A DNA stretch of 64,000 nt from an uncultured Gammaproteobacteria bacterium (GTDB lineage: Bacteria; Patescibacteriota; Microgenomatia; UBA10105; UBA927), in assembly GCA_964621305.1 (NCBI GenBank), contig CAZUOM010000001.1, forward strand, positions 165,448 through 229,447, read 5' to 3'. Shown piece by piece: positions 6,369-38,461 of the stretch; position 1 is the stretch's first letter, and the number at the start of each line of letters is the position of its first letter. The notes under the pieces were generated by a model. It saw nothing but the letters and a program-made list of their open reading frames with translations. It did no database searches and was not told the origin of the DNA. The position numbers were made by a program, and so were the translations under genes.

Positions 6369-6443
6369 AAAGCGTGAAATAACAGAACAAATACCGTATA
6401 CTTACACTTCTTGGCTCAATAATATATCTTAAAAAAAAGGCCT

Positions 6444-10823: not shown

Positions 10824-11339
10824 ATGCATCGCAATACCTACCTGCTCCTGATACTGCTTACGATCTTTGCCGCAATCGTGGCCGGTGTGAATATTGCCAA
10901 ACCGCAATCGGGTGAACCAAACCAAATAAATCTCCCAGAGACCGCCCAGCCCACACCGACTCCCCGACCGACCGTGTATAACTTAGGCAGCTGCGGCATA
11001 TCACTGATCGTGCCACCAAACTATACTACCATCGACGGTCCGGAAAGTACCGTGGTCTTAACCGGACCATCTGCCGGCGACACCATCATCGTCACCTGCC
11101 AAAAAAATATCCCGCGTCCCCCACTGCCAGCGGCGAAAATCGAACGGCTCGTCTTTGACATTGCCGAGCCGCCCGGTGCAAGTATTACCGCCACTCTCTA
11201 CCACGACGTTTCTTCCCGTGACGCGACGCCGGTCGACAAGTTAATATTTAGAAACCCCAAAAACGGCCTGGATATCTTCGTCTCCGGCACTGGGGAAGGC
11301 TTCCAATCCCTCATCAGAAACCTGAGCATCCTCCAATAA
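10824..11339 (+). CDS. hypothetical membrane-anchored secreted protein
   Basis: 171 aa; N-terminal signal or anchor LLLILLTIFAAIVAGVNIA, then a Pro/Thr-rich linker. Confidence 0.45.
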   Translation: MHRNTYLLLILLTIFAAIVAGVNIAKPQSGEPNQINLPETAQPTPTPRPTVYNLGSCGISLIVPPNYTTIDGPESTVVLTGPSAGDTIIVTCQKNIPRPPLPAAKIERLVFDIAEPPGASITATLYHDVSSRDATPVDKLIFRNPKNGLDIFVSGTGEGFQSLIRNLSILQ

Positions 11340-11486
11340 TTACATCAAATACTCATCAATGATATAATTATGAAGTTAGGGCTGTGATGAAATGGTATCA
11401 TGGCGCTCTCCAAAAGCGCTCTTCCCCGTCCGAGTCGGGGCAGCCCTGCAAAATTACTACAAAAACTCAGGTTGCACCTAATTTTT

Positions 11487-12113
11487 TCAGTGACGGGATA
11501 AGGAAGCCTGTGACAATGTTCTGTAGACCCATACGGAAGCAAGAGCAACAAGGGGAATTGTCACAAAAATTCCAACGATAAATATCAATATTCCTAGAAG
11601 AGAAACCAGGAAAACCAATATATTAAAAAGCAATGTATTCACTGTTGACCTTTTCGTTATCCGCCAGCTCTCTTTAAGAGCCGCAACAGGGCCGACTCCT
11701 TTGTCCACTAATACATAGGTCCAAAACTGCAGCCTTACGCTGAGGATAACGCCAGGAACGACAAACAATAATAAACCAACCAGCACCGCGCAGCCGTATA
11801 ACAGCGAACCGATGACATACGGAATAATTTTTTTCCGATGAACAAAAAGTTCTGGATAGCCCACTGTACTGCCTCCAGCTATTGCCAAATAGATGGTCAG
11901 CGTGCCGATGGTCACCATTGTTTGAAACAGAAAAAGCAACGCAAAGCCTGTGATGGAAACCCACCAGGGCAGGTTCTCAATACTATTGAGGAGGTAAATA
12001 GGTACGTTCTGAATTAATACAATGAGCAAAGTCAGAACAATGAGAAACTTTTTTTGTGCTTTAAATGTCGACCAGCCAAAACGGAAAGACTCAGTGATAG
12101 AAAAAGAAGCCAT
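11487..12113 (-). CDS. hypothetical polytopic integral membrane protein
   Basis: 208 aa with about 5-6 hydrophobic helices. Confidence 0.5.
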   Translation of the reverse strand: MASFSITESFRFGWSTFKAQKKFLIVLTLLIVLIQNVPIYLLNSIENLPWWVSITGFALLFLFQTMVTIGTLTIYLAIAGGSTVGYPELFVHRKKIIPYVIGSLLYGCAVLVGLLLFVVPGVILSVRLQFWTYVLVDKGVGPVAALKESWRITKRSTVNTLLFNILVFLVSLLGILIFIVGIFVTIPLVALASVWVYRTLSQASLSRH

Positions 12114-12152
12114 ATATTATTTTTATAGATCCAACGCCTAGCAAAGTCAAGC

Positions 12153-15100
12153 TCACCGTTTGGTTCCCGAAACCGGAGTGACATCGGGGAATAGGAGGTT
12201 TTTCAAGTCCTTTTGTGTATAGCGCTGCTCTATCAATTTAAATTCGTTATCTGATGTCATCATGAGGGTACGCAAACGAGCCGCGTTACCTAAAACGTCG
12301 GCGACGTAGACGCCAGCTTCATTGGCAAAACGAATCCCGATCGTTTCCCCAAAAAGAAATTTTGACGAGTATAATAAGTGTTCAGATTTTGATATATGTT
12401 CCCATTTAATCTGACTTTTATCAATAGTCCTACAGGTACTTTTTTCTGTTTTCAAACAGGAGGCCACTGCTCTATCGATCAATTTGCCTTTATTGTATCT
12501 GCCTACAGTAAGGGCCCACTGCGTAGCTTCGGAAAATTCCGGAGCCACGGATGAAGCGATATAATTTTTGATCCACGCCATATACATGGATCCTATGAGA
12601 ATGTTTGCCGTGGGATCTCTCTTCCAATAGTCTTTTTGTTCCACAAGACGTTTATGCACTCTGGCTACTTCCAAGCGCTGCGGTCCCTCTGGCATGTTGC
12701 TGATAAACTCTGGAAGCCTGCGAGTCATATCACCTGCAGCATCCTGCCCTATTTGCATGAGGCCGAAGTATCCATTTCCATGAACATATCTGCCAAAGAG
12801 CGATTCACGATGGATCTGGGCCATAAGAATTTCCGGCGGAATACCAAAAAGATCTGCTATCTGGATGATGCCGAGCGTCTCGGACATCGTTCCCAGGCCT
12901 GCCTGGGGATAAAGTTTAGTAAGCAAAGCAACTAGGTCCTGATGCCGTTGGTTGATATCTGGGAGTGACCTCTTTGGAGATGGAGCAAAGACTTTGGGCA
13001 TTAGATGAGGCCGCGTTAATCGAATGACTTCTTCATCCCTGTGGTGGGTAGGCGACGGGTCTATCGGGATAAAGTTTGCGCAAAGCCGCTGATGTAAAGG
13101 TTCACGCGCGTCCCAGCAAAAAGCTAAAGCAACGAAGCTCCCTGGCACAATCCGTAGCAGTATCATCCGGACAGGTGTATTGCCATTTCCGGCTTGCTCT
13201 ACTACTTCTGTCAAATGCGTGGCGAAGTATATTGACCGGGCAATAGCGCATACGATACTTTTTCCAATGCTTTGGCCTTCCCCGCTAGCCGATGTTCCGG
13301 CAGCATGGACTTTTGATATCAGGAATGCTCTGCCTGAACAATCATCTTGCAAGCGTGATAGATTCTGCAAACCATGCCACATCGTATTAATTGTCCGAGA
13401 AAACATGTAGCCGGCTAGCGGCATCTGCCAAAAATCCCACTGGGGATTGAAAAACGAGATCACAGCGCCTGCAGCCGGCAGCGCCACGTCCATCCAGTTA
13501 CGCACCTTCCCCTCTGCATCGGAGATGCCTTTATCCGGATGCAAAAACTCGGGTGTCCCAAATCTTAGTACGTCTTTTGCAAATGAAACCACCTGACGCG
13601 CAATGGAAAACAGATTGACCGGAATAACCTTGGCATCTCCAATCATCTGACCGACCCGCCCAAATGAAGCGTGATACCAGAGGCGGGCAATACCATACCC
13701 CCCTATTGGCCCCCACGTCTGGAATACGTCAATATCTGCCGGATTAGGGGCGATTCCGCCGGCCTGGATGGCTAAGGGGATTGCAAAAAGACCGAGAACT
13801 TCAAAAAACGTCGCCGTAGCCCTCTGCCGCAGCGAGATTGACGGATCGGCCGGATCTGCCCGCCAGGGGGTGGCCGCGCCGGGGAGGACAAAAAGGGCAG
13901 TATTTGCGGCAAAATGCGCCGCGCGGCCGATTGTATCAAGAATCAGTGCTGGCATCGTCGCGCACGGATCTCCCCTCTGACCGTCATCCTGGGCCAAAGC
14001 GCGTGGCACAAGCTGCAGCGATAGACACGGCTGCCGCCACGTCTTCGGCTGGCTTGATGGAACCGATAGTCTTACCGACATGACATTAGCGACCGCATAC
14101 GACAGCCTCGTTAAATCATCGTCATGCGCTTTGACCTGTTCCTGAAGAGTCGTCTTTGCCAATCCGCGGGCTAAGCGCAGGGCTGCCAGATACTTCCGCT
14201 GCGCATCGCCGATACGACCGGCTGCAGCAAGCCCATCAGCGGTTGCAAGCTGCTGGGAAAGTTGGGCTACGCCAAAAGCAATCATATTTTTCTTCCTTTG
14301 CAACAGAAAATTTGTTAACTGGTTACCAAGATGATCTTTTATATATGATGCCGTTGATCTAGATAGCGCAAGCATTTCTACCATCTTTCCCTGTCTGCCG
14401 AGGTCCTTGATATTGCCTGCGGCTGCAAACACGACGCGGAGAAATGAACTGCACACCGAACAGCTAGTTTTATCGGCCGCAACAGCCGCAACCGCCGCTA
14501 CCGGAAGGACCTGATTGTACGGAATATGATGAAAAAGTGTCATTGCAGCCGCGTATTTCATGGCATCGGCAAACATTCCTATTGACTGGTGAGTAAATCC
14601 GGACGAATGCGTCACAATGATACCTCCAGGCTTTCCACCAAGTGGCAGGAGATGTATTGCTTCTGGTTCAAGCGCGTGTCCTTCCTCATGCGTTAAAGTG
14701 CCATGCGCTCTTCCCAGGTCTCTGGCTAATGAACGATTTAGATACACCTCGTCACCATTAAATGCTCCGGCAAACGATACACTTTCGTTGACTAAAAACA
14801 CGCGCCGGTAACCAAGAGGTGCGTAGTTGTGGAGGGCAATTGCCAATAGAAAAAACTCATCCGGTGTTTTCGGCTCCACGACAAAATCCTGAGGATGGCG
14901 CATCTGCTCATGTCCTGTTTCAATGCCCGCCGCCATAGTCACGCGAGCTTCAAAATTTGGAATGTCCTGCTTGTTGGGGACTTCTGTTTTTTTCACGCCG
15001 AATTTCTTGCGCATCTCTTCAGCACGTTGACTTGCTTCTTTGCGTGCCCCAAGGACTGCAATTCTGCGGCCAAAAAGGCTTTCTGTAGTCAATTCCCCAC

Positions 15101-18100
15101 GACGGGACACTGATACATTCACTAAGGTCATAAGCGGAATATGCGCATCAGCATACGGCGCAGCACCCGTGGTTGTTTCAAGATATTTCATGAGCTGACT
15201 ATTGCTGATTCCGGCATAGTCGGCGGCATTGATTTTCGTTTTGAGTTCGATGAGCTCAGCGCTGTAGTGATTTTCCATTACCCTCCAGTAATCATCATTC
15301 TGATCCCAATCCGTGGGAAGGCCATAAAAGGTAAACTCCGGATTGGTTTGCGTCAGAGCCTTGTATGCTAGAGCTTTGTAAAATTCTATGGCTATGTACT
15401 TTTGAATCGTGGGTAGGTAGTCTTCTTCATGGGCAAATGACGTACGGCCCTGGATAAGTGGGAGCGGGATCTGAATCACAAGCCCAAGCTCATCAATTAG
15501 CGGCCAGAGCGTTTTTGGTATCAATGCTTTGTAACTATCCGGTATATCCGACACTTTTCTCCCGCCGGCGTCAACCACTTTGGAAAATAATCCTTTTGTT
15601 TGCGTCATCCGGAGGAGTCCGAAATTATTTAGCGGTACCTCAGTGAGTTTCTCCGTGTTCTTCATGTCATAGATTGCCTCTTTGGCCCCTTTCTCATTGA
15701 TGAGCGAAATAGCGAAGCGATCTGTTTGGGCCATGGCAGTGTTTTCCCGCCAGGATTCAACCGCCAGATACTGGTCCAGTTCAGCGATGGTCCGGTCGGC
15801 GTTTCTGATGCGTCTCACCAACAGGCCCTGTTTGACCCGGCTGTCCCTGATCCGGCGGACACCCGTTACTCTGCGGCCTACATACCTTCCGTTTTTATCC
15901 CGGTCAACAGTAACTGTAAATTGATAGGCGAGCTTACCGTTGTTGTTAACAAACTCAACCCGGTCGACGCCTTCGTAGTAACTGTCTAGTCCGCTGCCGA
16001 AAAACCCACCACTGGCTTCCTGCAAACCTTTCTTCTTGGTTGATTTCCGAAGCAGTAGCACCAGCTCCTTATCCGCACCAGTGCCGTCATCATAAAATTC
16101 CTCTACAGACTCTTTCCCAAGCGGCCCGTCCTCTAGATAATAGGCAATGGTCAACTCTCCCCGTGAATTGTCTACGGTTGCATCCTGGGCGTTTTGGACT
16201 GCTTCCGTCGTGTAGGTTCCCGGCGGCCGCTTGGTACGGGCTTCAACAGCCAGCCGTTCCTCCCCTTCTGGATCTTTCGGCGGGAGACTGTCAATATCGC
16301 TAAAAAGCTCTTCCGTGTCCATGACTTCGTTGCCCTGCTTATTAGTGCGGTTGGCATTTTTAGCAATCAACTGGGTCAGGTAAGCGCCGTCTTGCGGCAG
16401 AGCTATTTCACTACCCTCATACACCAGCCTCTCGCGGGTAGGTAGTTCAGGCACGCGGTTGGTCAAAAATATAGCAAAACCGCGGGCTGGGCCGAGCTTA
16501 TTGTCCGGCTGTGGGGCGCGGACAAAGTCGGCGAGTTCTGCTGACGAAGGTTTGTTTAATGCAGTTGCCATCTGACGAAAGTAATCATCGCGAACTTGTG
16601 GGTCTTTCGTCGTAATTTTGCCTAGTTGATCTAAGATCACCCCAAGTTTTTCCGCTCCACCGGCATCAACAGCCGCATCCCACATCCTCACAAGCTTCTC
16701 CCGGGCTCCCGCTGTGTTATTTACAGCTTCCCGGTAACTGTTGAGAAAATTTGATAAAGTCGGCAGAAGCGTCGCATGCTGAGCAGATTTCACCTGCCAA
16801 CCAAGGGCAAGCACCTCCAGCATCGCTTCGTTCCACCCGTCCACAGGTATTGCCGGATCAGCGACAAGAGAAACAAGGGACGAAAAGAGATTGACTATAT
16901 AGTTTTTTCGGACCGCGGCGCTTTCCTGATGAAGAAGCGGGCCGACCCGATCCATATGGGCTTTCGCTAGATCCGTCATTCGACGAAATCTTGGTGCTAT
17001 GTTATCGAAGGGCAACTGTGTGGTTGTATCTAATTGACCTCCTTGGACATGCGCGGTGAAGCGCCTCCGGAACTCTGCATCTTCGGCTTGATAAAGTTGA
17101 CTAAGAGTTGAAGTAATTTTTTGTTCAATATTACCACGGTATTCTTCTGGAGCAGCATCAAGGAGGGGTTGATATCCGGAACGAATCAGGGCTATCCGGT
17201 CATTTCGCTTGGAAAGAACTTCGGATTTCCATGTATCGTAGAGCTTCTGTTTTGCGGCAATATCCGCTTCGTTTTGCGCTGGAAACCTCTGCCGTTGAAC
17301 CAAAAGTGCTGCCGGATTGACAAATCGTACATCATTGGGATCCGACTCGGATGCAAGCACAAAAGTGTCACCGTTTGCCTCCATCAGGGAATAACCGCCG
17401 GGAATACTTGGTGCTATTACGTTTTCGGGTCCGGTTGTATTTTGCACGCGCCATCCGCCAAGCGTCCTCATCAAGGAATATTTGCCGTCGACAGTAATAT
17501 ATTCCTCCCCACTAGCAAGATTTCCCTTGCCTACGTACACAATCTGCGCACGTCCGTATGGGGCGGCTCTGTTGCGACCAAACCACTCATCCGGTTCAGA
17601 GGTTGGTAATCTGGTCAAACCAACCGTATCCCACCAACCGGCAATGAAGTTTGTCTCACTCCCTGATAAAAGATCAACAAGCCTGGTTTCTGGCCCGGAT
17701 GATTTTTCCACTTGTTCAACTACATAATCGCCCTCCAGGCGAAAGTTAAGTCTAGCACCAAATGTTGGCGGGTTTGAAGAGTACGTCAGACTCAATTCTG
17801 ACGATGGGCTTCGAACGACTCGATCAGAGCTTCTATCCCAAATAGATTTCTGGTCTTTATCATACCGCTCCCAGAAACGTGGAAGCATGTCGCTTGCCAG
17901 AAATTTGTTCAAATTCTTGAAGGTATATACATCTTTCCGGGTACCGTCCTGGCGGGAGAATTTAGCCACTTGATAACTCGGCCCTGATCCTATTTCAACT
18001 ACAACATAGTCATGCTCGTCGTCAGATGAAACAAATATATTATCCATTTCTATCCCAACGTTTTCCCCATCGATTTTCGAAATGCTAACGGAAACCCCAC

Positions 18101-33100: not shown

Positions 33101-36100
33101 ATCCTTGTCTCAAGCTTCCTGCGGAAAGCCCTGCGGCGCCCAACTGACTGGCGCACTGATCCGCACTTGCGCCGCCGGAAAACGCCGCAGCACACGCCAC
33201 TGCAGCTTGCAGAGAATTGACGGTCGTATCTGCCTTTTGAATCAAAGCTTTTGCATTGGGATTAAATGCCGCCTGCCTGGGTTGCGTCAGTCGCGCAAGG
33301 GAAACGCCTGCCATTGCCAGGGCAAGTTGACAGTTACCAGAACCGATTGATTCTTTACTGCAGACATCGGCAGCATTCCAAGAAAACACCACGGGTCCCA
33401 GATAGTGATTGATCCTTTCCAACGCTCCGGATATGCCCTTCGTAGGAACCAGACTCGGCTTGAGGGAATTGCTGACAGCTACGACTGCGTCGCTACTTTT
33501 TTCAACGAGAGCTAATTTTCCGCTTGCATTTCCGGCTTGGCCCACAAGTGCGAGTGCTCCCGCCGGTGCATTTTTGGCTACCTCAAGTTGCTTAATCCAT
33601 TTGGCTGTCTGGCTAATGCTCGTTGCGCTGGAGAGTCCGGCAAACGTCGTCATCATGGCTGAGCGCGCGCACTCTCCTCCGTCCATCTCATGCCCGAATG
33701 CGCACGCATGGGCAGTCTGTTGGAGGCTGTCGCCGGTAAAGTAGAGTCCGACCGCTGACCCGCCCACATTCAAGGCAACGGGAACGGACAAAATTTTTGC
33801 TCCGGCTTTGGCCAACTGAAAGAGTTGACCGCCCGGAGCTACCAACGCCCACGTCGACAATACCGGTTTTCCGTAGCTCATTCCCCAACCACGAACCATA
33901 TCCAGCCGTGCAACTGCCTGATTTTCCTTGGTTTCATTCGGATCCCACATCCTTCTTTCAGCATCCTTTATCAAAAATTGTCCCTGCAAGTATGATCCGG
34001 AGGTAAAATTATTAACCCCTACAACAAAGTGTTCCGCAAGATTAAAATTGTCAATATCTTTTTTCACCCGCACAAAATCCGCTTTGCCGGCAAAGATGTC
34101 CTTTGCGTTAACTCCCTCCCCTTTGGCAGACAGAATATTGGCAACGCTATCGCGCACAGCTCCCATGGCGATGAACTGCTCAACGAGAAATTGTTTGTCA
34201 GTTTTGCCGGCATTGTCTGGGTCGCTACTCCACTGCTTATAGGCAAGAGCATTTTTCCTCTCTTTTTCTAAATTGGCACGGTCTTCTGCCGATAGTGTGG
34301 CGGCATACGTATCGACGACGCGCTCAACGCTTGTTGGCGCATTATCTTTTGTTCTCGCAAGATCCTCCCGTAACCGTATCGCATTCACTGCTCCAGAAAG
34401 CACCCCGCGCCGCAGCCACCCTGGGTCTGCTGATATTGCGGCAGATACTTCGCGCGACACTAAGGCCCCAGTGGCAGCTTTGTCCTCCATCTCAATTGCC
34501 GTAGCAAGCTCTCGGACGACTTCATCGCGGGAGGTTGATTTATACCGTTTTGCGGCCGCTAGCGGATTGTAATATTCAGCGTCCCTAGTGATTAGTTCGG
34601 CGGCAAAGCCCCACTCTGCTTGTTTGGCGGGGCTAGATCCCAAAAGCTGCGATCCTCCTTCTACAACCGGAAGCATCTTGAGAGCATTGAACGTCTTGAC
34701 AACCGCGTTATCTATGAAGCTCAGCGACCGTATGTTCTTATCAACGCGCAACATATCGACTTCTCCCCGCAGCACCTGGCTCAAAATAATTCCTTGAGTA
34801 TCGTCGCGGATTGCTCCGATATCTCGAAGATCCACTTCACGCAAAATGAGGGCTTTAAGTTGTTCGAGCTGGAATTTTTCAGGCGTTGCGTCGATTTTCC
34901 CTCTTTTCCAATCCCTGTAAATGGAAGATTTTTCAACTGCAGCCAACTGGCGCAGCCTCTCGGTCTGACTCTGGGCCGCCAGCAGCGAATCTACTCGCAT
35001 ATCGATAAACGAGTCCCCACCTGCAGTCCGTACCAGAGCGCCGCCAGTGATATCGTTGAGTGTGCTTCCGAGCCAAATGAGCGGATGTTTGCCAAAATCT
35101 CTTGCTTCAGTCATGTGCTTCTCAATTTCAGTGGGAAGTCTTTCCCCTCTTTTCCATTCCGACACTGCTTGCTCTTCCTGACCTAAATTTTTTAGGCTGT
35201 TCCGAATGCGGTTAAGGGCATCTTCTTGGATCTTTGTAAATTCTTCTATAGATAACGCGCTACTGCCGGAATCGGCCTTGTATTTCTCAAAAATTCTTTT
35301 CCTATTGTTCTGGACAAGTTGATTCTCCTCATCTATTGCCCGGATAAGATTGGCTCGTTGATTTTGTACGACAGCCGTGTCAAGCAGAAATCCTACCTGT
35401 TCTTTTTCCAAACAACTCGTCAAGCCAGTCCCCAAATTGCCTTTGCACGCCGCAAGCTTTTGGAGGACAATGTTTGCTTTGGAGGCTATAGAAAGGCCAC
35501 CAAAAGCTATATTCTCAAGTGAAGCTTTCGCCCCTTCAATCATGTCTGCGTGGCATCTGGCATAGTACCGGCTATCCTGCCCGGTACAAACGGTGTCAAC
35601 GATTGCTCTTGCCGTTCTATCAATTACCTCGGTAGAGTTCAAAAGTGTTCCACTGCCACATTCATAAATATTCGAATCGCCTTGAAACTGGATGTATCTA
35701 TCCGTATATCTTTGCGATACGCACGATCGTCTGACTGATTCTGCCGGGACGTAGGTCGTCCTGGTCTTCAAATCGATAGTCAACCCTTGATCCAACACGT
35801 TTTTGGTCGTTTCGGCACAAGTTTTTTCCTTTCCCGCGCAGTAGGATGCAATGGCCCGATTCTCCTGGGCAATCGGATCAACGCTCGATATGTTTCCTGC
35901 GGCGATAAGCTTCTCCTGTTTGGTCTCACATTCTTTCGGATCAATTCCAAGCGCCTCAAGCCGCCGACACAAATCTCGTGCAGCAGCCGCTCCCGCGTTC
36001 GGGGTAGTTTTCGTCCCGATCCCGTAGTCGACGCCAGCACCTGTTCCATATACTTTGTTATCAAATGATATGGCATAATCATGCGTTCCTTCTTTTTTCG

Positions 36101-38399
36101 AAAATGAGATCACTGCTTTGACCTTCTCGCCGTGCAACGAAAATGTCACCTCTTTCTTTACAGGTTTCGTAGGGTTTATTGTTGCCAATTCCGCGAGGCT
36201 TTTCTGATTCTGCGGACCGAGGATTTGAGCCAGTTGTATGAGACCGTTTGCTCCGGTATTTTCGGGGCTAATACAGTTGCCCGTCACCTGACAGGAAACC
36301 AGGGTACCGACGCGGTCGATAACTTTTTCTCGGTACAACTGGTCTAAATTCACGGATCCAGACACGGGAGCAGTGATTCCTGTTGCGGATAAGTCCTGCG
36401 ATGAGACTGTTGAAAGCTTGGCAGCTGGTTTTGTCTGATCGATCAAGAGCTCAATATCCGTCGACTCGTTCCAATACTTTGTCATTACAAACACGCCTTT
36501 GCCTTTTGTCGATTGATTGAAGTAGATCTTCGAAAAATCTATACCAGGAAACTTCTTCCTAAATCCACCGTCGCCCACTATGGCTGAAATGAGTTGGTTT
36601 TGCCGTTCGGTCAGTTTCGCGTTTGGTTTGGAAAAATACGTTTGCACTGTGGACGCCAGTTCAATTTCAGCTAGGGTAAAACTATCCCTCGCACGAGCTT
36701 GAGCCGGGGCCGCAACCGGCTTTGGTGCAACGGGCTTATTGGCTGTTGCAATAATGGCTGCAATTTCGGCCGGCGTTTTATTTTTTGCAGACTCTATCGC
36801 TTTGCATCCGACACTCTCTTTATTTTTACATACTGCTTCTTTTGTCGCCTCATAATCGGCTCTTGCCCATGCACCACAGTCAACTGGCGTACTAGATGCT
36901 TTTTTATACTGCTCGCAGGTTGTCTGTGTGGCAGCTTGTTGCATGCACGCTGCGTCAATACAGGGTTTGCGGTCTTTTTCCGGTATCGCAAGATACAAAA
37001 GCACTCGCGGGTCGTACTTGCCAAGAGAATCCAATGCAATCTTTTCTTTTGCTATGGTCGCCAGAAGTGATGAGTTCGGTACCGTTAAGCTCTCCCTCAA
37101 ACGATTGACTATATCGATATAGGCCCGATCCCGCAACGCTTTTTGGCTCCCGCTTGCTTGCCCCTCTGCCAATTTCCGATCAACGGCGTTGTATGCATCT
37201 TGAGCAACAGGCAAACAGCTAAAATCAGATCCGCCGGCAAGTTTACATGCGCCCCAAGCGGCTTTTCCTGCCTCACACGGAGCGCTACCAAAACACTCAT
37301 CCGGGGCTGTTGCCGGTACCACGACAGTCGCAGGCTTTATCGCGGTAGCGGCTTTCGGACTTGGCGTAGGCGCTTCGACTGGCCGGGGTGCTGGGCTTAT
37401 CGTAGGGGGGGTTGGATCGACTATCATTGCCATACCAGGACCCCGTCCTTTAGCCAGCGATGGGGCCAGAGACGGGGCGGCCGTCGGTTCGGGACTGGGT
37501 ACGGGAGATGGAGTCGACCCAAAACAACTCACCTGACAATCGCTCCTTTTCTGTTCAATACAGCTTAAGTAACATCCCATACTATTTACTTTTGAGATCG
37601 CCTGAGCGATTAACGACTCCGGGGCAGTAGGCGCTGCTGCAGGTTGCGTCGGCGGTGGTGTTGGTGCTGGTGTCACATCCGGCGGTTGACTCGGGGGAGC
37701 AGACGGACAGACCCACGCCCAAAGCGTCTCCGCCAGTTTTTGACAACTGGCAGCTCCATAAGAGCACGATGGGCTGCCGCCGGTACAATACTTTGGCACA
37801 TCGACAGCTGCCGCCGTCACGACAGGAGTCGGAATAGACTGTGGAGTAGGCTTCTCTATAACGGCGCATCTGCCGCCGTCAACCGTAGGAATGCACCAAC
37901 TGGCCTCCGCAGCACATTCACTCGTGGTGGAGGAATCACAATATGGCTCCCGCGGCTGCGGCGGTGGTGGAGGAGGAGGGGGCGGTGACGGAGGAGCAGG
38001 TGATTCAATTTGTTCGTAATTGCACCGTCCATGCCCGCCGCACCACGCACGGTATCCTGGCTTGTCGTCGCATCTCCCCAAGTCGACACCATCAAAAAAA
38101 CCGCACTCCCGGATTACCCGCGGCCTCTCATCAGGAGCCTGTGCTGGATTTGTCGGTAGCGGTGGTGGTGGTTGAGGAGGGGGCGGCGGAGGTTTTGGTT
38201 CTGGAGGTGGCCTCGGCGGTTGTGTGGCTGGTGGTTTGGGCGCAGGCGGCCGTTTTATTGCTGCAAAATTACGAATATCGCCAACAACATCGCGGTCCGA
38301 AATAACCTTTACGGTTAGCGGCATGGTCACAGCCACCATAACAATGGCAATCAAAGCGATAATTTGAAAAAAGCCCCTTTGGGACTGTGACGTACTCAA
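12153..38399 (-). CDS. giant multidomain membrane-anchored protein (8,748 aa; 26,247 nt; TTG start, TGA stop)
   Basis: Single uninterrupted frame. Layout, N to C: signal-anchor helix; Pro-rich (PPPPPPQPPPP) and Cys-rich regions; long coiled coils; SF2 ATPase motifs; intein; PD40 repeats; GHKL boxes; HEEGH; a multi-helix hydrophobic block; C-terminal SLT domain. Antisense ORFs from the track inside this span are shadow ORFs. Confidence 0.8.
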   Translation of the reverse strand: MSTSQSQRGFFQIIALIAIVMVAVTMPLTVKVISDRDVVGDIRNFAAIKRPPAPKPPATQPPRPPPEPKPPPPPPQPPPPLPTNPAQAPDERPRVIRECGFFDGVDLGRCDDKPGYRAWCGGHGRCNYEQIESPAPPSPPPPPPPPPQPREPYCDSSTTSECAAEASWCIPTVDGGRCAVIEKPTPQSIPTPVVTAAAVDVPKYCTGGSPSCSYGAASCQKLAETLWAWVCPSAPPSQPPDVTPAPTPPPTQPAAAPTAPESLIAQAISKVNSMGCYLSCIEQKRSDCQVSCFGSTPSPVPSPEPTAAPSLAPSLAKGRGPGMAMIVDPTPPTISPAPRPVEAPTPSPKAATAIKPATVVVPATAPDECFGSAPCEAGKAAWGACKLAGGSDFSCLPVAQDAYNAVDRKLAEGQASGSQKALRDRAYIDIVNRLRESLTVPNSSLLATIAKEKIALDSLGKYDPRVLLYLAIPEKDRKPCIDAACMQQAATQTTCEQYKKASSTPVDCGAWARADYEATKEAVCKNKESVGCKAIESAKNKTPAEIAAIIATANKPVAPKPVAAPAQARARDSFTLAEIELASTVQTYFSKPNAKLTERQNQLISAIVGDGGFRKKFPGIDFSKIYFNQSTKGKGVFVMTKYWNESTDIELLIDQTKPAAKLSTVSSQDLSATGITAPVSGSVNLDQLYREKVIDRVGTLVSCQVTGNCISPENTGANGLIQLAQILGPQNQKSLAELATINPTKPVKKEVTFSLHGEKVKAVISFSKKEGTHDYAISFDNKVYGTGAGVDYGIGTKTTPNAGAAAARDLCRRLEALGIDPKECETKQEKLIAAGNISSVDPIAQENRAIASYCAGKEKTCAETTKNVLDQGLTIDLKTRTTYVPAESVRRSCVSQRYTDRYIQFQGDSNIYECGSGTLLNSTEVIDRTARAIVDTVCTGQDSRYYARCHADMIEGAKASLENIAFGGLSIASKANIVLQKLAACKGNLGTGLTSCLEKEQVGFLLDTAVVQNQRANLIRAIDEENQLVQNNRKRIFEKYKADSGSSALSIEEFTKIQEDALNRIRNSLKNLGQEEQAVSEWKRGERLPTEIEKHMTEARDFGKHPLIWLGSTLNDITGGALVRTAGGDSFIDMRVDSLLAAQSQTERLRQLAAVEKSSIYRDWKRGKIDATPEKFQLEQLKALILREVDLRDIGAIRDDTQGIILSQVLRGEVDMLRVDKNIRSLSFIDNAVVKTFNALKMLPVVEGGSQLLGSSPAKQAEWGFAAELITRDAEYYNPLAAAKRYKSTSRDEVVRELATAIEMEDKAATGALVSREVSAAISADPGWLRRGVLSGAVNAIRLREDLARTKDNAPTSVERVVDTYAATLSAEDRANLEKERKNALAYKQWSSDPDNAGKTDKQFLVEQFIAMGAVRDSVANILSAKGEGVNAKDIFAGKADFVRVKKDIDNFNLAEHFVVGVNNFTSGSYLQGQFLIKDAERRMWDPNETKENQAVARLDMVRGWGMSYGKPVLSTWALVAPGGQLFQLAKAGAKILSVPVALNVGGSAVGLYFTGDSLQQTAHACAFGHEMDGGECARSAMMTTFAGLSSATSISQTAKWIKQLEVAKNAPAGALALVGQAGNASGKLALVEKSSDAVVAVSNSLKPSLVPTKGISGALERINHYLGPVVFSWNAADVCSKESIGSGNCQLALAMAGVSLARLTQPRQAAFNPNAKALIQKADTTVNSLQAAVACAAAFSGGASADQCASQLGAAGLSAGSLRQGLGERGKTVGSRVGLEKALADIDALTAAPEQLPERLQEAKTRLRAAIIDTGKAEAQAHAMARELSIKEENRTRVEREFDKAAKRWNSLFEKDGSLRVSNNLESLITPEKVDAARSALYAADAAVRQEAAIRTSPGNFIRQAVDRASGNADYKDFEAKRKAFEEIAKKPDADATAYKEAFTRLADARQKLESREWTKSQREVMDELKQLQKDQAEREEAYQKLVQENRSEKDAQEFTKRADQQVELAADWDSANKKIAVLEKEFTASGGLRRKVAEVFIGTKRNPGPLVAATVAIGDGVSGQSLKKSALDAKARMVASHEAREILERRIDLLKSEGKPVAADLEKALESAKSNEKAADELYNRAKKQTDESIRIKLGKTIDNIINRGEGAARQKLADTTGRLGEVAKQLRDDGFRIQRKDTGELELVSLDGKNEPKPEAKARLTEVSALLGEIETIWSDELSRKTGNQEQRKMVGPNEERADQSGIFYDAVFDASVKDDITGVLYDGSTGLGKSAFLLNAIADVKAKLTGSKVHVMATTFADVQGMMAQYPPEVHARNGVKAVYYDIQNRQVTYVDGKGNRKTVGGSEGAAAMASSDVVYSATADTPYEHHASRASDELSRAFLSATKDSILLIDEFDMILASTRFSSGGKKILVVDSNPEIVKAFEEIYHSQEVKDFVDAGITEKQQGGRSKLFIDDQGGVRLSADNKAQEMRLKMVLKAAEQSYNRTKSQSDPAFETWAQEKHITHYENGNRRVIPEEIIAQLNVYRNAPDAPRPFVQDLSVRLSVVNAIIADVGRPSNSYGRPSPGADLVYGDGTGRLQNTRPQDAYAALSLDTVGNRIQEALNNRPISHEDAGKQTSRVTVSEQGETTTWKQIIASGHYSQRVYGFSGTPDGVVLDARLSLGMEMKAFQPDRSSVEQIFGQINRTRDFTWKEIDSTEKIAVKELQKGEAARVILDAVDTDRRILERKIVDEGKKMGEDVEVIIINNDNTIAESEKVRVYKNGNPDHSIVGREGRTALEEFLRQYEVGSRGDRRFILVYTQGSGRGTDIAGVFRKGDVPRSGRSSASSDAQYIIASKYKTTKNGLVQDIGRAREIASDATVYVLGEADASYTLADAEKIFDQNEGLAAKDQGPRQGTRQEALTHSLAQGYDDLVKNTIDQLVLESNEQSFVDRLFRRKPRSFVLDADGKPVDVSQKWKSLYDRVAGGSDSLSNGLESGAATIDRAAARAREFINGLKDTPEFGLLSDRAKEFYYDRIYNSGKRTEIALIENPSLSFNPEAVRGKNLQDAVRIDDRTAIINSKVSQSDIAASIVRQGAETPVRLGPQEVPASTPSPLEIFDNIASARPDLARQADVEFSDRNIPDTLRQSSKQEAVELAQRFAQWKPHEKLTPGDVAVFIEINARLTQNNLPSLQLGKDILQDPELFLALYRFLVRARNAAAQLPPGSQEKIGELNDKISTYEQTFGIADGSLPSFRFTAISVASGHTVKEIDARLEAAYGFFEPSLGQAIINVSNVEHPDGFARTAFEEAFHGARMGKSGYGLYGQPISLEEASVRWFARKLGLHTLQYETPFIDGFGKLVDVIGEADAYQIARLGQWEKARDLYESKRGIGTYLRDFSDINDQRFLQLTGFLFSQPESLEGEVRTDTSAPSPGKDRREAIKRASAVIFRWEQVRAQERSEEDQAVLLAGIAAAYESADSDIVKQADQWKDAYRNAAKHRVAEGAVDAVVNEEVAVARELLANPDIDLESAVGEGRLDSSSKRILTILTASYRATKQGGQVQQWPTFRKFFNFTLSDDQLRTAYGIDVAKETAGRFGWMGARGPIGKWTNAAFFGLGRGGRLFNWTYATSPAGWAETSRFVITRSPIGWFLLPKFGIWSFGYDIARSVNWVWQNVRPQPAPPSASAAQANVQASQVHSVELALEDGLVIAKDASDNVIAVIPRIPDPNPGIVEAIRSKIPLPIIGAPAPLRWGNPVVFKEGTAVRTHVGVYAMRKLGDKSVLNRGEDVIAQAQGLGKADPIEGTKIPITNHTQLKYIVANYSWFKLLGSGLVYWGNLAGRGGSGHPALFPEALFEPVTPTTDTPTGPESITAQPAEKAQSDTDRAVKVFNDLSDQAKELGIAVPIVNQADLASIQNGINELRTRLEQVRKLNEVLDLIRGDNIGLNDEWKKVGENALKKTSDKNEVVNSIRGAILTSKDVADKIAKLTADERARVQEAARERAQQIYEIVVSKQQASISQAEQHIERVLSDKGNFLYYGEWKEVAQNAKRYPFPYAVGFVKAAIQDALKEEIAILGEAVWNSKYDQRVEKLARQIAHEVLPAEPLALKPGQQQIPLAPGEVAEQARQAEQARPVTPRTPAGAVPEARLPECVTGDTILRRRRRKSKIKDQKVKIGGGDGDWKTRDLLTQWSLLRRVIAIIGSIAESFGFGDVVLSGRGFGGMTPPAVDILKREINCQQEKDSKQCSQNIDEVDRIYLGDIHTSSFLTMTSSMYQKATEDVNPNVRNAASAPLAAMGATTNPANRTWPMSWQIPESDRSWSGESRNGLAINTRCGTDGDDTATLGLLSMMVCGMLRNVGGLDEDWLAGHSLDEGWEDVRIDEIEEGDEILTLDERSGCLVPAYVNKLLVKGMQDVYKLSTLLGRKIETTSTHPYYRETSRPSVKRKIAVFIDDANVFYAQRRAGWRVSWKKFLRLLSASGDIVYAGYYVGTPEGKLKTQAASYISDRATEGYRVVTKPLKKIITNPKTGAFIYKCNFDVEMAWDIQSYLASVTDVVVVSGDSDFVNLAKQIKSQGKNFTMMCFEQNAAWEIRKIPHLFIEKLRVWLDKGGKKAPLARGEETVYILSNRMDHVKGGQWCRVSQLRVGDRIAVAGAGHAFYDTVVSIEKVGRKEVFDIEVEGTHNFVANGIVAHNTTVRTEYRINPKLDPLVQLATSRSLHDDELTQLTLNEIDELERRLSKRFANEKKDRSKRIMEENISVVREIKSIITLVESLSFGIVNHEDNEKISALEVWMARHEQEYKADVFSFGFAARAAIPQIGGFGAVSDIWNLLRASDETLVEEKEQLPILRLNNNGPTHEEVLASKTAFAYQTETFGGIDYDHYVWAVQRLHSGQVDGKTLTTLLSQLGLSINLTGKDAAQAIFESLSRTGFTPEIINLVNAGTFEDPLTDVDISFQSGRQKVQGIAETVSNSRDALVPEAIIGQFSKGVKQNLGWLEPNGKDTLFVLTANGGKFFVQSFIRAPSGQYFISPAKEISKEEFRDKAQAQITAFEKESGQPFTHGTIFALRLSTPLVKQTTPENFITQEEIDRRLRERFPFETRVRLTTQVGDAGTHRVNGHEHKRIIVPAGRKLPDPKEVDKRHIFVFVNEQGTTTVDNGTGMDAGVFTRMMVSKTGTKTPGPLDIEAELDRMMIVSDDTLPHAVSFARNGEVIETVVIPETLAESSTMPGGLMIELGRLFEVSEARDLVNIPQSNNPGEITAFEQGVMHLVNLLVEYAQRPEIGPEQKAEYLTIINTMIVGLEGIEHGNPEAIAAVASIRTKTMKAIEPIIGSLADRYIVVPDDGQFTKLAIPTGKTALFLHPKIFAWEGATSLVKQFGAKPIRGLELANGAQIVVAPFTDASFDHVRKVKEDWWTVPERDRLPIIITDRVVVIPPELGMRRLLEIIDKKISRSQSDLEEKELAGLIERINIVTSSRVVTSYEKVPTSPSIALSLADFVRSEGEIDSAAINRYLVDPPKEAVAGVTHTLPPVGTKVNAFLTSEGTLIDLYSGRLVVDNSGNTLGQKSRVKKIDFLPGNHTEVLFEDGTLVLYRVAPAGWTEITRADPGFVFEYSPDKQWVYVKVPGWDIIGSVIHLLPENEKRYWAESEFSTTGPAASKNIYGNVSFSPTSTYLTYLEVDSNHRTETNLSIVNLKKPDQKPLSVSLQIPSSWLASDTRGEILKNVTVSQAINPYADVAYVALNYKGKRSMQLVDLATGRVLITDAKHLMTEPTGRLTMAIGYNDKIKAVLSSDGVSHTQLPDGTPIESVISFFGSGGLSGVGSINPKDGKLYLYNDAAKGFIAGDPALDYLNKNALFAVSFSETDVRYFSFPGVGTRISLAPNELDLLGQRGNGTVYLDADNKLIIDTRIPTVKRAYHAHVLPGTNPAPLEFGDVAVMGSIGDTLLVWRRPHVVVMANVGGGTSQQQYTGAWDGQAGGFFVRASPGDNGQYILMRLNTASPSPRVLPGLSETDYPEVIFDGKYFVFTNSDTKKAAYLDPAKPDDIMFVSLDAAAGETALAEQPMLVAIQNGILIHAETKKPILFSGTAKSVDNVEWVKPIGKGYFRYKDKKMHTEILLHIRGYVAEVLTGSLKGEELLVSSNQQWVYGRGYKIAVNTKTGQKHFLTNNFKTNAPSVVNEQVIQNSVQFTSDGKYLIYQTEDTASKDQHTFIIDAVSGSILNTNTSVSSLKEPVWRIHPHAPVMLFQDRDRIILWDLKNGQQIEGKHIRVDSSGAYAVVVDKNDRVGIYLIGSGRDVIWQMPNRKSITQAVTTFYIDGSVDVFVTDEDGKIWILENGAFVNQFGTKPRIKILLRLFYTNNYVVIFYLFDANNINTHSLPAKPYGDLGPLQQTGDANVYYDANLGLIMDSSHPSKLTAINPSTGQINTTFFKGTIVSYSEKRNAIFIDRDGKLTEVNNGNFVGRDFGYALDINKRYLVRKGALDRFFFVDLGENTPEVELKAAAGMTNVVFDGRYFVFSNHTTGAIMYMKPDDPSALLSAAEVAAQADAANQSAITTIRPPTAPNRLVITKDGSGSYRLFDTDNKQPFGKEYVEVTRLGKNSFFVIEKQTGEQRLLTFDDTKPLSMALPVVDEVIQPGYKLVRVSEDVALFRGIFGTGIRHKAVLLHDIKQDLTTNMGSVASDSRIELSASGKYIVYVNDKSELVFNNSNNFILQDRIGDMGAIDSYSVHTYADVVIVKLKSGKYALFSLDKKDYVAWTPANPADHIEIDSTGKFIIGKNSLPSGVSVSISKIDGENVGIEMDNIFVSSDDEHDYVVVEIGSGPSYQVAKFSRQDGTRKDVYTFKNLNKFLASDMLPRFWERYDKDQKSIWDRSSDRVVRSPSSELSLTYSSNPPTFGARLNFRLEGDYVVEQVEKSSGPETRLVDLLSGSETNFIAGWWDTVGLTRLPTSEPDEWFGRNRAAPYGRAQIVYVGKGNLASGEEYITVDGKYSLMRTLGGWRVQNTTGPENVIAPSIPGGYSLMEANGDTFVLASESDPNDVRFVNPAALLVQRQRFPAQNEADIAAKQKLYDTWKSEVLSKRNDRIALIRSGYQPLLDAAPEEYRGNIEQKITSTLSQLYQAEDAEFRRRFTAHVQGGQLDTTTQLPFDNIAPRFRRMTDLAKAHMDRVGPLLHQESAAVRKNYIVNLFSSLVSLVADPAIPVDGWNEAMLEVLALGWQVKSAQHATLLPTLSNFLNSYREAVNNTAGAREKLVRMWDAAVDAGGAEKLGVILDQLGKITTKDPQVRDDYFRQMATALNKPSSAELADFVRAPQPDNKLGPARGFAIFLTNRVPELPTRERLVYEGSEIALPQDGAYLTQLIAKNANRTNKQGNEVMDTEELFSDIDSLPPKDPEGEERLAVEARTKRPPGTYTTEAVQNAQDATVDNSRGELTIAYYLEDGPLGKESVEEFYDDGTGADKELVLLLRKSTKKKGLQEASGGFFGSGLDSYYEGVDRVEFVNNNGKLAYQFTVTVDRDKNGRYVGRRVTGVRRIRDSRVKQGLLVRRIRNADRTIAELDQYLAVESWRENTAMAQTDRFAISLINEKGAKEAIYDMKNTEKLTEVPLNNFGLLRMTQTKGLFSKVVDAGGRKVSDIPDSYKALIPKTLWPLIDELGLVIQIPLPLIQGRTSFAHEEDYLPTIQKYIAIEFYKALAYKALTQTNPEFTFYGLPTDWDQNDDYWRVMENHYSAELIELKTKINAADYAGISNSQLMKYLETTTGAAPYADAHIPLMTLVNVSVSRRGELTTESLFGRRIAVLGARKEASQRAEEMRKKFGVKKTEVPNKQDIPNFEARVTMAAGIETGHEQMRHPQDFVVEPKTPDEFFLLAIALHNYAPLGYRRVFLVNESVSFAGAFNGDEVYLNRSLARDLGRAHGTLTHEEGHALEPEAIHLLPLGGKPGGIIVTHSSGFTHQSIGMFADAMKYAAAMTLFHHIPYNQVLPVAAVAAVAADKTSCSVCSSFLRVVFAAAGNIKDLGRQGKMVEMLALSRSTASYIKDHLGNQLTNFLLQRKKNMIAFGVAQLSQQLATADGLAAAGRIGDAQRKYLAALRLARGLAKTTLQEQVKAHDDDLTRLSYAVANVMSVRLSVPSSQPKTWRQPCLSLQLVPRALAQDDGQRGDPCATMPALILDTIGRAAHFAANTALFVLPGAATPWRADPADPSISLRQRATATFFEVLGLFAIPLAIQAGGIAPNPADIDVFQTWGPIGGYGIARLWYHASFGRVGQMIGDAKVIPVNLFSIARQVVSFAKDVLRFGTPEFLHPDKGISDAEGKVRNWMDVALPAAGAVISFFNPQWDFWQMPLAGYMFSRTINTMWHGLQNLSRLQDDCSGRAFLISKVHAAGTSASGEGQSIGKSIVCAIARSIYFATHLTEVVEQAGNGNTPVRMILLRIVPGSFVALAFCWDAREPLHQRLCANFIPIDPSPTHHRDEEVIRLTRPHLMPKVFAPSPKRSLPDINQRHQDLVALLTKLYPQAGLGTMSETLGIIQIADLFGIPPEILMAQIHRESLFGRYVHGNGYFGLMQIGQDAAGDMTRRLPEFISNMPEGPQRLEVARVHKRLVEQKDYWKRDPTANILIGSMYMAWIKNYIASSVAPEFSEATQWALTVGRYNKGKLIDRAVASCLKTEKSTCRTIDKSQIKWEHISKSEHLLYSSKFLFGETIGIRFANEAGVYVADVLGNAARLRTLMMTSDNEFKLIEQRYTQKDLKNLLFPDVTPVSGTKR
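12480..12900 (-). other. C-terminal lytic transglycosylase (SLT) domain of the giant protein
   Basis: ILMAQIHRESLFGRYVHGNGYFGLMQIGQDAAGD ... VGRYNKG, i.e. the ES ... GLMQ ... Y-N-x-G signature of family-1 lytic transglycosylases. It is preceded by about 5 hydrophobic helices. Confidence 0.6.
14683..14697 (-). other. HExxH zinc-metalloprotease-like motif in the giant protein
   Basis: GTLTHEEGHALEP. Motif only; the surrounding fold was not recognised. Confidence 0.3.
15950..16230 (-). other. GHKL-type (Hsp90 or histidine-kinase-like) ATPase motif block in the giant protein
   Basis: N box EAVQNAQDA, G1 box FYDDGTGAD, G2 box ASGGFFGSGL, in the canonical order and spacing. Confidence 0.4.
18000..22500 (-). 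other. array of PD40 or TolB-like beta-propeller repeats in the giant protein
   Basis: Recurrent F/V-x-x-DG-K/R-Y-x-x-F/Y units, e.g. VVFDGRYFVFSNHTTG (about 18870), VIFDGKYFVFTNSDTK (about 20360), QFTSDGKYLIYQTEDT, ELSASGKYIVYVNDKS. Confidence 0.45.
24633..25103 (-). other. NYN (LabA-like) nuclease domain in the intein's endonuclease position
   Basis: IAVFIDDANVFY ... VTDVVVVSGDSDFVNLAKQI, the two NYN/PIN-like acidic motifs. No LAGLIDADG, HNH or GIY-YIG motifs are present. Confidence 0.55.
25269..25962 (-). other. about 230-aa basic and Cys-containing insertion splitting intein block A, flanked by duplicated GDTIL / GDEIL motifs
   Basis: CVTGDTIL is followed by RRRRRKSKIKDQKVKIGGG...; block A resumes at EEGDEILTLDERSG-CLVPAYVNKLLVKG...VYKLSTLLGRKIETTSTH, which aligns with the N-terminal region of the Mxe GyrA intein (sequence recalled from memory, not verified). 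Confidence 0.4.
29800..31600 (-). other. SF2 helicase or SecA-like ATPase module inside the giant protein
   Basis: Walker A GSTGLGKS (about 31563-31590), motif II ILLIDEFDMILASTR (about 31190-31225), motif III-like GFSGTP, and motif VI QDIGRAREIA (about 29830). Confidence 0.5.
38301..38369 (-). other. N-terminal signal-anchor TM helix of the giant protein
   Basis: Residues 11-33, FFQIIALIAIVMVAVTMPLTVKV. Confidence 0.5.
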
Positions 38400-38431: not shown

Positions 38432-38461
38432 ACAGTATTAGTTTAAATGCTATTGTGTCAA
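38432..38461 (-). promoter_or_regulatory. candidate promoter of the giant gene
   Basis: On the minus strand: TTGACA, 18-nt spacer, TACTGT, about 30 nt upstream of the TTG start. Confidence 0.3.

Follow-up and report, generated by a model that had tools for sequence, protein, structure and literature searches.

The 64,000-nt stretch of contig CAZUOM010000001.1 analysed here (the window; assembly GCA_964621305.1) carries on its minus strand a giant gene, a single uninterrupted open reading frame (ORF) at 12153..38399 that starts with TTG, ends with TGA and encodes 8,748 aa; all features of this protein described below lie on the same strand. An earlier note drawn from the sequence had reported a giant single ORF with these start and stop codons, and re-reading the same coordinates confirmed it, with the frame open throughout. 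A codon-usage model trained on 13 other (housekeeping) genes of the window, with which the three frames were compared in sliding windows, preferred the ORF's own frame in 170 of 173 windows, the three exceptions all falling within the Pro-rich N-terminus. Since its own frame prevails so consistently, the whole length of the ORF is coding, and this holds also for the odd insertion of the intein described below. It is a genuine coding sequence, probably a real gene; a recoded or frameshifted pseudogene was ruled out for the window's gene. A sigma-70-like promoter match (TTGACA-16-AATACT, 38434..38461; a match to the consensus only) lies 35 nt upstream of the start codon, 39 nt separate the stop codon from the start of the next gene, and the neighbours are housekeeping genes in a chromosomal context.

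Ten overlapping 1,000-aa tiles of the giant protein, scanned against Pfam, NCBIfam, PHROGs and PADLOC, gave only three significant matches: the splicing blocks of an intein, an NYN nuclease inside this intein and a C-terminal SLT domain. No SecA, PD40 or peptidase family was matched by any tile. Thus, from the domain list of the earlier note, for which HMM searches of tiles were the proposed check, the SLT domain and the intein were recovered by hidden Markov models (HMMs), the superfamily 2 (SF2) ATPase, the GHKL ATPase and the HExxH motif found support in motifs or weak profiles, and the SecA and PD40 assignments did not hold. Sequence searches against PDB gave no match at E up to 1 for the ATPase and GHKL-zincin modules, and none at E up to 10 for the alignment profile A1.

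Two rare cores and the junction between them

We compared 400-aa tiles of the giant protein by phmmer with all retrieved relatives, except for one locus outside that database (L003), which was aligned by tblastn. Residues 1285-3105 (the N-core; 29085..34547) matched only L005-L009 and P0009 among these tiles, phmmer and tblastn together delimiting the core against L005-L009, L001 and P0009. Residues 4840-7960 (the C-core; 14520..23882) matched only L015, L016 and P0004 (L004/P0004), together with the L003 locus by tblastn at aa ~4847-7955. For aa 1-1285, 3105-4840 and 7960-8748 the tiles found no match among the relatives retrieved. Judged from these homologies, the giant protein is a fusion of two rare cores that are found apart elsewhere.

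Both cores are indeed rare. Relatives of the ATPase in the N-core numbered two in a word-indexed search of 5.8 billion protein clusters and seven in an exhaustive HMMER scan of 1.84 billion representatives, one of which (P0009) is itself a giant of 7,512 aa. Among 185,579 species genomes, the ATPase occurred at five loci, labelled Patescibacteria H41-bin250_1, Candidatus Gottesmanbacteria nzgw410 and, for the other three, TPA metagenome-assembled genomes (MAGs) 'Gammaproteobacteria'. In five independent MAGs, the relatives of the N-core are ORFs that stay uninterrupted for >6,000 aa, extend past the ends of the fetched loci and carry the same N-terminal anchor motif. In five loci (L001, L005, L006, L007 and L009), the gene order rho, LysM/M23 peptidase (361 aa), a gene of ~270 aa and the giant gene is indicated by Pfam searches that covered the rho ORF at five loci and the M23 ORF at three, and by precomputed hits for the M23 of L001. 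There was no synteny between the neighbours of the window's gene and those of the relatives. In L001 (ERZ1300416 NODE_812, 5.5x coverage) the giant had been called as three genes of 1,386, 780 and 4,102 aa; its ATPase is broken by a brief stretch that is out of frame and holds several stops, probably a low-coverage assembly error and not a true split.

Three relatives of the C-core were found in word-indexed searches of 5.8 billion protein clusters. The C-terminal query retrieved P0003 and P0004, a profile search P0011, and a metagenome scan L015 and L016. These homologues differ widely in size, from 1,881 aa (P0004) and about 3,800 aa (L003) to at least 4,618 aa (L015). The complete 4,541-aa ORF of L016 (Ga0172377_10001158, 1817-15442) has its own N-terminal transmembrane (TM) helix, tetratricopeptide repeats (TPRs) and an ART-PolyVal ADP-ribosyltransferase domain (aa 649-823, Pfam E 3e-16), the last two replacing the N-half of the window's protein. 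The neighbours of the C-core relatives are housekeeping genes (pyrB, pyrC, MMPL). L003 and L015 share a C-terminal tail of ~100 aa ('GGID[FM]R[AS]LP...WQEIE.M.N.GI.PS.ERIREYL') that matches no family and is absent from the window's protein.

The seam between the cores is also the place where other assemblies stop. Two assemblies besides the window's own contain the genes on either side of the giant; no paper on the accessions was found. Over positions 47428 down to 28476 of the window, the Logan contig SRR6943130_30414 agrees with it at 100% identity and, from its length, ends at ~23897 (aa ~4834), so that it covers the N-half and the whole intein. The NCBI contig SBBN01000007.1 (GCA_005239695.1) is 100% identical from 22113 to 1487, with its start deduced at ~23911 (aa ~4830). 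A further NCBI contig, SBBN01000040.1, stops short of the intein, about 54 nt ahead of its first codon. The NCBI and Logan short-read assemblies thus share a break at 23897..23911 (aa ~4830-4835), 3-8 aa before homology to the C-core begins, which only the window's own assembly spans; the sequence of the break is not repeated within the window. Because both short-read assemblies break there, the status of the gene as a single ORF rests on one junction.

It might be that an N-gene of 4,834 aa or more, with its end beyond the intein, and a C-gene of 3,918 aa or more were artificially joined at ~23897-23911. This would agree with the breaks of GCA_005239695.1 and Logan SRR6943130 lying within 15 nt of each other, with their position just ahead of homology to a C-core that is separately encoded elsewhere, and with the two cores occurring together in no retrieved relative. 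However, neither partial ORF closes before the end of its contig, which leaves each of them without a partner, and the two contigs overlap by ~15 nt with the frame kept, both being 100% identical to the window. Moreover, GC content and GC3 are similar on either side, codon usage is continuous, and the two flanking genes have been recorded together on a contig of 310,471 nt. The two short-read assemblies also probably share reads, so their common break, which may reflect a strain-level branch, is not independent evidence. We consider an assembly join to be quite unlikely. The check for mis-assembly was nevertheless not passed cleanly: identity was 100% and the frame was kept across the overlap, but one junction is unsupported by the two other assemblies.

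Predicted enzymatic modules and an unusual intein

Motifs and weak profiles point to an SF2 ATPase at aa 2230-2900 (29700..31712). Its motifs I (GSTGLGKS, 2271), II (LLIDEFD, 2396), III (YGFSGTP, 2652), V (GSGRGTDI, 2809) and VI (QDIGRAREIA, 2854), with an insertion of ~250 aa between II and III, are invariant in an alignment of seven family members (A2) as TGxGK[ST], LLxDExx, YGF[ST]GTP, G..G.D and Q..GR.R. The Pfam family ResIII matches four of these seven proteins (best E 0.0018) and DEAD matches one (E 0.056). In PDB, the family profile found the second RecA-like domain of the DEAD-box proteins Vasa and DDX3X (E 0.1-2), with an alignment that pairs 'GSGRGTDI' with 'AARGLDI'. These weak lines all agree and support the presence of an SF2 ATPase. 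The more specific claim, that this ATPase was SecA-like, fared less well. In hhalign comparisons of the first ATPase domain with single E. coli sequences, UvrB reached a probability of 79%, followed by SecA (30%), DinG (19%), RhlE (2%) and RapA (1%); for the ATPase, the SecA values ranged from 11 to 30%, below UvrB. The alignment with SecA has the local strings LTGxxVHV, DExDxIL and G[MF][ST]GT in register, and 'GRGTDI' resembles SecA motif V, but the giant protein and its six relatives lacked any match to a SecA Pfam model (SecA_DEAD and preprotein-binding included) at E up to 5-10. We therefore did not assign a SecA identity, since UvrB scores higher and no SecA HMM matches, and the reading as a specifically SecA-like ATPase was dropped.

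An AlphaFold2 prediction of the ATPase from a 6-sequence alignment gave a poor model (predicted local distance difference test, pLDDT, 52.6), to which Foldseek matched nothing up to E 1e-3, the top-ranked but insignificant entries being RIG-I-like, UvrB and SecA proteins. With these SF2 ATPases that bear inserted domains, the giant protein has in common the order of motifs I, II, III, V and VI and a large insertion within RecA-like domain 1. It differs from them in that no single subfamily is matched significantly and that neither a SecA scaffold/wing module nor a UvrB beta-hairpin is assignable.

The C-core appears to contain two further ATPase modules of the GHKL type. Module 2 (15240..16247) has an N-box (EAVQNAQDA, 7399), a G1 box (DDGTGA, 7437) and a G2 box (GGFFGSG, 7464) that are invariant in the homologue alignments. 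They line up with the corresponding boxes of E. coli HtpG (hhalign P 4e-4), with SecA and UvrB as controls staying at a probability of <=0.6%. Module 1 (aa ~4950-5150; 22350..23582) is GHKL-like, with an N-box (ETVSNSRDA, 4953) and a G1 box (VDNGTGMD, 5141) that also occur in L003 and P0004. The GHKL box set noted at the outset is supported by its three conserved boxes and the HtpG alignment, and is joined by a second, GHKL-like module, but HMM scores remain below cut-offs: the NCBIfam sacsin ATP-binding-like domain, for instance, reached E 0.014 on the GHKL module. The boxes ExxxNxxDA, DxGxG and GxxGxG resemble those of Hsp90/sacsin-type ATPases. The giant protein differs from these in its scores under the curated cut-offs, in the ~180 aa between N-box and G1 in module 1, and in the unique helical region and HExxH motif that follow module 2. 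In L015, a third HATPase_c domain, significant by Pfam, is present after the zincin.

Between the two GHKL modules, aa 5545-7040 (17280..21767) form three beta-rich internal repeats of ~500 aa each, mutually 21-25% identical, with PD40-like motifs S-x-[DS]-G-K-[YF] and without significant family match. They had first been read as an array of PD40 beta-propeller repeats. This was not sustained: Pfam had no PD40 match in the repeats (best Beta-prop_THOC3, E 0.044), and the hhalign probability for TolB was 8%. Downstream of module 2, a zincin-like region (14520..15242) contains HEEGHALE (7904-7911) and GFTHQ (7934-7938), whose motif residues are invariant in P0003, P0004 and P0011. H7904, E7905, H7908 and E7911, together with the downstream H..FTH (aa 7930-7937), are invariant in four homologous sequences, so the previously noted HEEGH motif gains an extended and conserved context, but the tile scans yielded no peptidase HMM match for this region. 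The AlphaFold2 model of the GHKL-zincin module (four sequences) failed, with a pLDDT of 40.3.

The protein ends with an SLT lytic transglycosylase domain (aa 8512-8641; 12477..12866), which we could confirm as originally described. It scores above the Pfam gathering threshold (E 1e-6; 28.7 bits versus 21.3) and its catalytic motifs are intact: E8532-S8533 within IHRESLF, GLMQ at 8546 and YNKG at 8635 (RYNKG, a YNxG motif). Both the SLT score and the E-S, GLMQ and YNxG motifs are shared with family-1 (Slt70/VirB1/FlgJ-like) lytic transglycosylases. Unlike these enzymes, the domain is a C-terminal fusion on an 8.7-kaa protein, downstream of hydrophobic segments. Its best neighbours in NCBIfam and PDB, weak ones, are flagellar-assembly lytic transglycosylases and FlgJ. 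Among the relatives retrieved, the SLT tail is specific to the window's protein.

The intein, recognised by Pfam Intein_splicing (E 3e-14) and NCBIfam intein_Cterm (E 1e-9), extends from C4138 to N4679, with T4680 as +1 residue (24363..25988). Its blocks are A (CVTGDTIL), B (TSTH, 4415-4418) and F/G, which end in His-Asn followed by Thr (VFDIEVEGTHNFVANGIVAHN|T, aa 4659-4680). Its closest solved relatives are DnaB mini-inteins (PDB 4o1r and 1mi8; E 4e-11), with which it shares blocks B, F and G and the terminal HN, T4415-S-T-H4418 aligning with the block B region of DnaB inteins. The intein differs from this type in several respects. Its host is not a replication enzyme, its insertion site is a non-conserved linker at the seam of the N-core and C-core, block A is duplicated, and the homing endonuclease is replaced by an NYN (PIN-like) nuclease domain (aa 4432-4584; 24648..25106; acidic motifs FIDDAN and SGDSDF; Pfam NYN E 7e-18, PADLOC NYN E 4e-6). 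No LAGLIDADG or HNH endonuclease was matched in the giant protein by the domain scans, no NYN-bearing intein was present in phage records, and we found no paper pairing 'intein' with 'NYN domain'. PADLOC gave only NYN, homing-endonuclease and noise matches, and an anti-phage defence protein was ruled out.

The duplication of block A is accompanied by an orphan insertion. The consensus CVTGDTIL at C4138 is displaced by 213 aa in the upstream direction relative to the DnaB alignment, which puts position 1 at a degenerate second block A (WLAGHSL, aa 4351-4357; 25329-25349) whose first residue is a Trp (W4351). The ~205 aa in between (aa 4146-4350; 25350..25964) have no Rfam match and no terminal repeats, and their codon usage is in frame; an intron, another RNA or mobile DNA was ruled out on these grounds. 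The intein is consequently not as canonical as had been thought: it retains intact blocks B, F and G and an intact +1 Thr, but NYN stands in place of LAGLIDADG/HNH and the insertion separates two block-A-like motifs. It is possible either that C4138 is the nucleophile and the protein splices, or that the N-terminal reaction no longer works and the Asn drives cleavage at the C-terminus only, in which case the C-half would be released.

Membrane topology and possible roles

The N-terminal anchor and the Pro- and Cys-rich regions reported previously were borne out. A strong TM helix (aa 10-28; 38316..38372; hydropathy 2.48) is followed by the family motif DIRNFA (aa 41-46; 38262-38279). A TM helix and the motif [DE][IL]R[NQ]FA are also found near the ORF starts of L005-L009, ~12 residues separating them in all six family members. 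The motif may be a sorting or processing signal. Upstream of the helix, the relatives have in common a string 'FFIDCY' that the window's protein lacks. Further on, aa 99-1749 (33153..38105) combine Pro-rich linkers with 44 Cys arranged in 22 consecutive close pairs, whereas the other ~6,950 aa hold 19 Cys; in the first ~530 aa, the pairs mostly form 4-Cys modules with Pro-rich linkers between them. This pattern argues for a disulfide-bonded, extracytoplasmic location of at least aa ~30-1000, perhaps to ~1750. In SBBN01000040.1 (L019), an in-frame length change of ~144 nt relative to window ~37843-37970 affects the Pro-rich repeat region, whose linkers seem to vary in length or to be difficult to assemble.

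Between its N-terminal and C-terminal ends, the protein has candidate membrane crossings in only two places. One is a Gly/Ala-rich, weakly hydrophobic region (aa 1510-1760; 33120..33872) that includes an uncharged segment at aa 1536-1554 and whose homologous region is more hydrophobic in P0009 and L005. The other is an aromatic-rich segment ending in FGYDIARSV (aa 3590-3665; 27405..27632), homologous by eye in its motif to strongly hydrophobic TM clusters with GYDxxR located ~1,000 aa after the ATPase in the relatives. Between the former and the ATPase, aa 1760-2229 (31713..33122) are charged, helical and coiled-coil-like, as indicated by composition and a 3.5-residue periodicity, a crude measure that gave a weaker signal around aa 840-1120 and 3920-4200. 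The 'kilobases of coiled coil' first proposed can accordingly be upheld for aa ~1760-2230 (about 1.4 kb of DNA), with heptad-like character, but not for the remainder, where the signal is weak. Similarly, hydropathy did not reveal the claimed block of TM helices ahead of the SLT domain: the hydrophobic/amphipathic region at aa 7960-8500 (12900..14522) has two moderate segments that are candidate TM helices (aa 8198-8216 and 8410-8428) and a few weaker ones.

We propose, with a probability of about 40%, that this chromosomal gene of a Patescibacteria (Gottesmanbacteria-related) bacterium of the candidate-phyla-radiation type encodes a polytopic, envelope-embedded and ATP-driven multi-enzyme protein in which two rare cores are fused. 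Both ends would face outward and the ~6,000-aa middle would lie in the cytoplasm, because the SLT domain must face the wall and the ATPases and nuclease-bearing intein only make sense in the cytoplasm. The disulfide-rich N-region could mediate surface contact and the SLT domain a local opening of peptidoglycan, with the SF2 and GHKL ATPases supplying or gating mechanical work. The zincin may process the polypeptide, and the intein would remove itself, or at least cleave, after translation. A likely role for such a protein would be to build or operate a contact structure with a partner cell, or to remodel the wall around it. Evidence in favour comes from the long uninterrupted relatives with their anchor motif and the LysM/M23 gene beside the giant in five of them, from the confinement of the Cys pairs to the N-terminal 1,750 aa, from the SF2 and GHKL motifs kept in distant homologues, from the strong TM clusters of the relatives, from the intact SLT motifs and intein blocks, from the coding character and housekeeping surroundings of the gene, and from the precedent of the Omnitrophota giants discussed below.

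Several observations weigh against this proposal. No strong TM helix lies between the presumed ectodomain and the ATPases, the best candidate (aa 1536-1554) having a hydropathy of 1.57, and the proposed topology is therefore a model only; in addition, three Cys pairs lie downstream of this candidate crossing. Both structure predictions failed, with the low pLDDT values given above, and therefore no fold is confirmed. The N-core and C-core occur together in no other sequence retrieved, and two other assemblies do not span their join. The SLT domain could serve purely in-house wall turnover. The cell-surface apparatus suggested in the earlier note is, in sum, favoured by the anchor, the disulfide- and Pro-rich region, the NTPases and the intact SLT, but its simple anchor-stalk-tip layout is topologically problematic because ATPases and intein cannot work outside the cell. 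Patescibacteria are generally regarded as an epibiotic lineage. The suggested fit with an epibiotic lifestyle agrees with the occurrence of N-core relatives only in Patescibacteria/Gottesmanbacteria MAGs and with the LysM/M23 gene two genes upstream in five of them, but nothing points to the wall of another cell over the cell's own.

The activity could indeed be directed entirely inward, if the protein were a morphogenetic or secretion scaffold whose SLT domain and ATPases serve the producer itself in wall growth, in division or in the insertion of the protein through the wall, with no other cell contacted. Specialised lytic transglycosylases for flagella and secretion systems offer a precedent, and the flagellar neighbours of the SLT domain, weak as they are, the synteny of the relatives with rho and an M23 peptidase and the stable chromosomal context would all be compatible with such a scaffold. 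However, a core morphogenetic function does not fit a family so extremely rare and patchy (7 hits among 1.84 billion representatives), and interaction or conflict proteins are the more typical bearers of orphan, fast-evolving parts such as those at the two ends of the giant. We think this explanation unlikely.

Rather unlikely, in our view, is that the giant protein acts as an effector akin to polyvalent proteins, that is, as a chain of enzymes, domesticated or mobile, delivered into another cell and cut by its own zincin and/or intein. The SLT domain would then breach the wall on entry and the ATPases would act in the cytoplasm of the recipient, so that ATP would no longer be needed outside the cell. 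The polyvalent proteins of phages and conjugative elements (Iyer et al. 2017, PMC5512222) likewise chain unrelated enzymes and include zincins and peptidoglycan-cleaving domains; zincin processing and lysozyme-type domains recur in them, and some are chromosomal remnants (PMC5512222). In the giant, the unrelated modules in one polypeptide would be SF2, two GHKL, zincin, SLT and a nuclease-bearing intein, and the full-length C-core homologue L016 carries the ART-PolyVal domain. Nevertheless, searches of 50,697 phage records, 72,556 plasmid records and IMG/VR contigs turned up no relative of either core, and a phage or plasmid origin by sequence was ruled out on this basis. The giant also lacks Pfam matches to the hallmark PolyVal, LPD and MPTase-PolyVal families, its surroundings and those of its relatives are housekeeping genes, with no integrase, relaxase, type IV secretion system or phage genes among the neighbours, in the window or around the relatives, and it has instead a disulfide-rich region and a conserved N-terminal membrane anchor, the latter not a trait of polyvalent proteins.

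A further possibility is that the protein is a trans-cellular machine by which an episymbiont acts on contact with its partner. The N-terminal anchor would stay in the producer, the SLT domain and hydrophobic helices would breach the wall and membrane of the partner, and the intein and/or zincin would free the ATPase-bearing C-core, to be powered by host ATP. The intein would contribute C-terminal cleavage, given the Trp that occupies the canonical place of position 1, and its NYN (PIN-like) domain could act as homing nuclease. Giant proteins transferred between partners of a bacterial consortium, as outlined in the preprint 10.64898/2026.03.19.712371, provide a precedent for the trans-cellular idea, which we nonetheless hold to be very unlikely for the window's protein.

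Elsewhere in the window, a de novo purine biosynthesis operon (47508-60372, minus strand) comprises purF, purN, purD, purL, purQ, two copies of purP, purB and purM. The purP genes form a tandem pair of the archaeal, formate-dependent type (52476-53480 and 51414-52469), and a full purine pathway with duplicated PurP was unexpected for a Patescibacteria-like genome. ARAGORN called a 92-nt tRNA-Lys inside purD (57421-57512, minus strand), probably falsely, and a tRNA-Trp at 11378-11449 (plus strand) adjoining the downstream neighbour of the giant gene; Rfam at gathering threshold reports neither. Near the tRNA-Trp lies a gene for a 119-aa protein (10421-10780, plus strand) recorded as belonging to the 23S_rRNA_IVP family of four-helix-bundle proteins.

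Relation to other giant proteins

The earlier note had also suggested that the protein could be the core of an undescribed system. The concept has, however, already been proposed for the giant TM proteins of Omnitrophota, which have divergent SecA/DEAD domains and, in some cases, SLT domains, and for which prey adhesion and wall digestion were put forward (West-Roberts et al., bioRxiv 10.1101/2023.11.21.568195). The resemblance to the window's protein is considerable: in a bacterium that is ultra-small and probably dependent on a host, one very long ORF encodes TM segments, a divergent SF2 (SecA/DEAD-like) ATPase, much unannotatable sequence and, in some, an SLT domain. However, the window's protein comes from another phylum, as its Patescibacteria-type relatives indicate, and departs from the Omnitrophota-type profile (>10,000-30,000 aa, numerous TM segments, SecA_DEAD, neighbours for type II secretion or sugar import) in most respects. 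Its 8,748 aa are below the 10-kaa 'large' class of these giants, it has one strong TM helix and a few weak ones, it gave no SecA_DEAD or SecA preprotein-binding match, and no type II secretion or carbohydrate-import genes occur near it. It carries, in turn, an intein and a GHKL-zincin core, neither of them reported for the Omnitrophota giants ('intein' occurs 0 times in bioRxiv 10.1101/2023.11.21.568195).

We therefore see the window's protein as a rare, Patescibacteria-type giant, putatively of the envelope, that is unique in joining an SF2 core to a dual-GHKL/zincin core by way of an NYN-bearing intein and that ends with an SLT domain. The functional idea of contact or wall breaching is plausible but not new. 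With the window's protein, the giant-gene theme known from Omnitrophota also appears in another ultra-small lineage, there with a different set of enzymes. The unusual intein at the seam of a gene fusion bears, in addition, on the spread of inteins and on their possible co-option for protein processing. Patescibacteria genomes measure about 1 Mb, and the ways in which these bacteria attach to and exploit their hosts are largely unknown. A gene of ~26 kb in a genome of ~1 Mb must matter to the cell, and the giant is a concrete candidate for the machinery of host contact or wall breaching.

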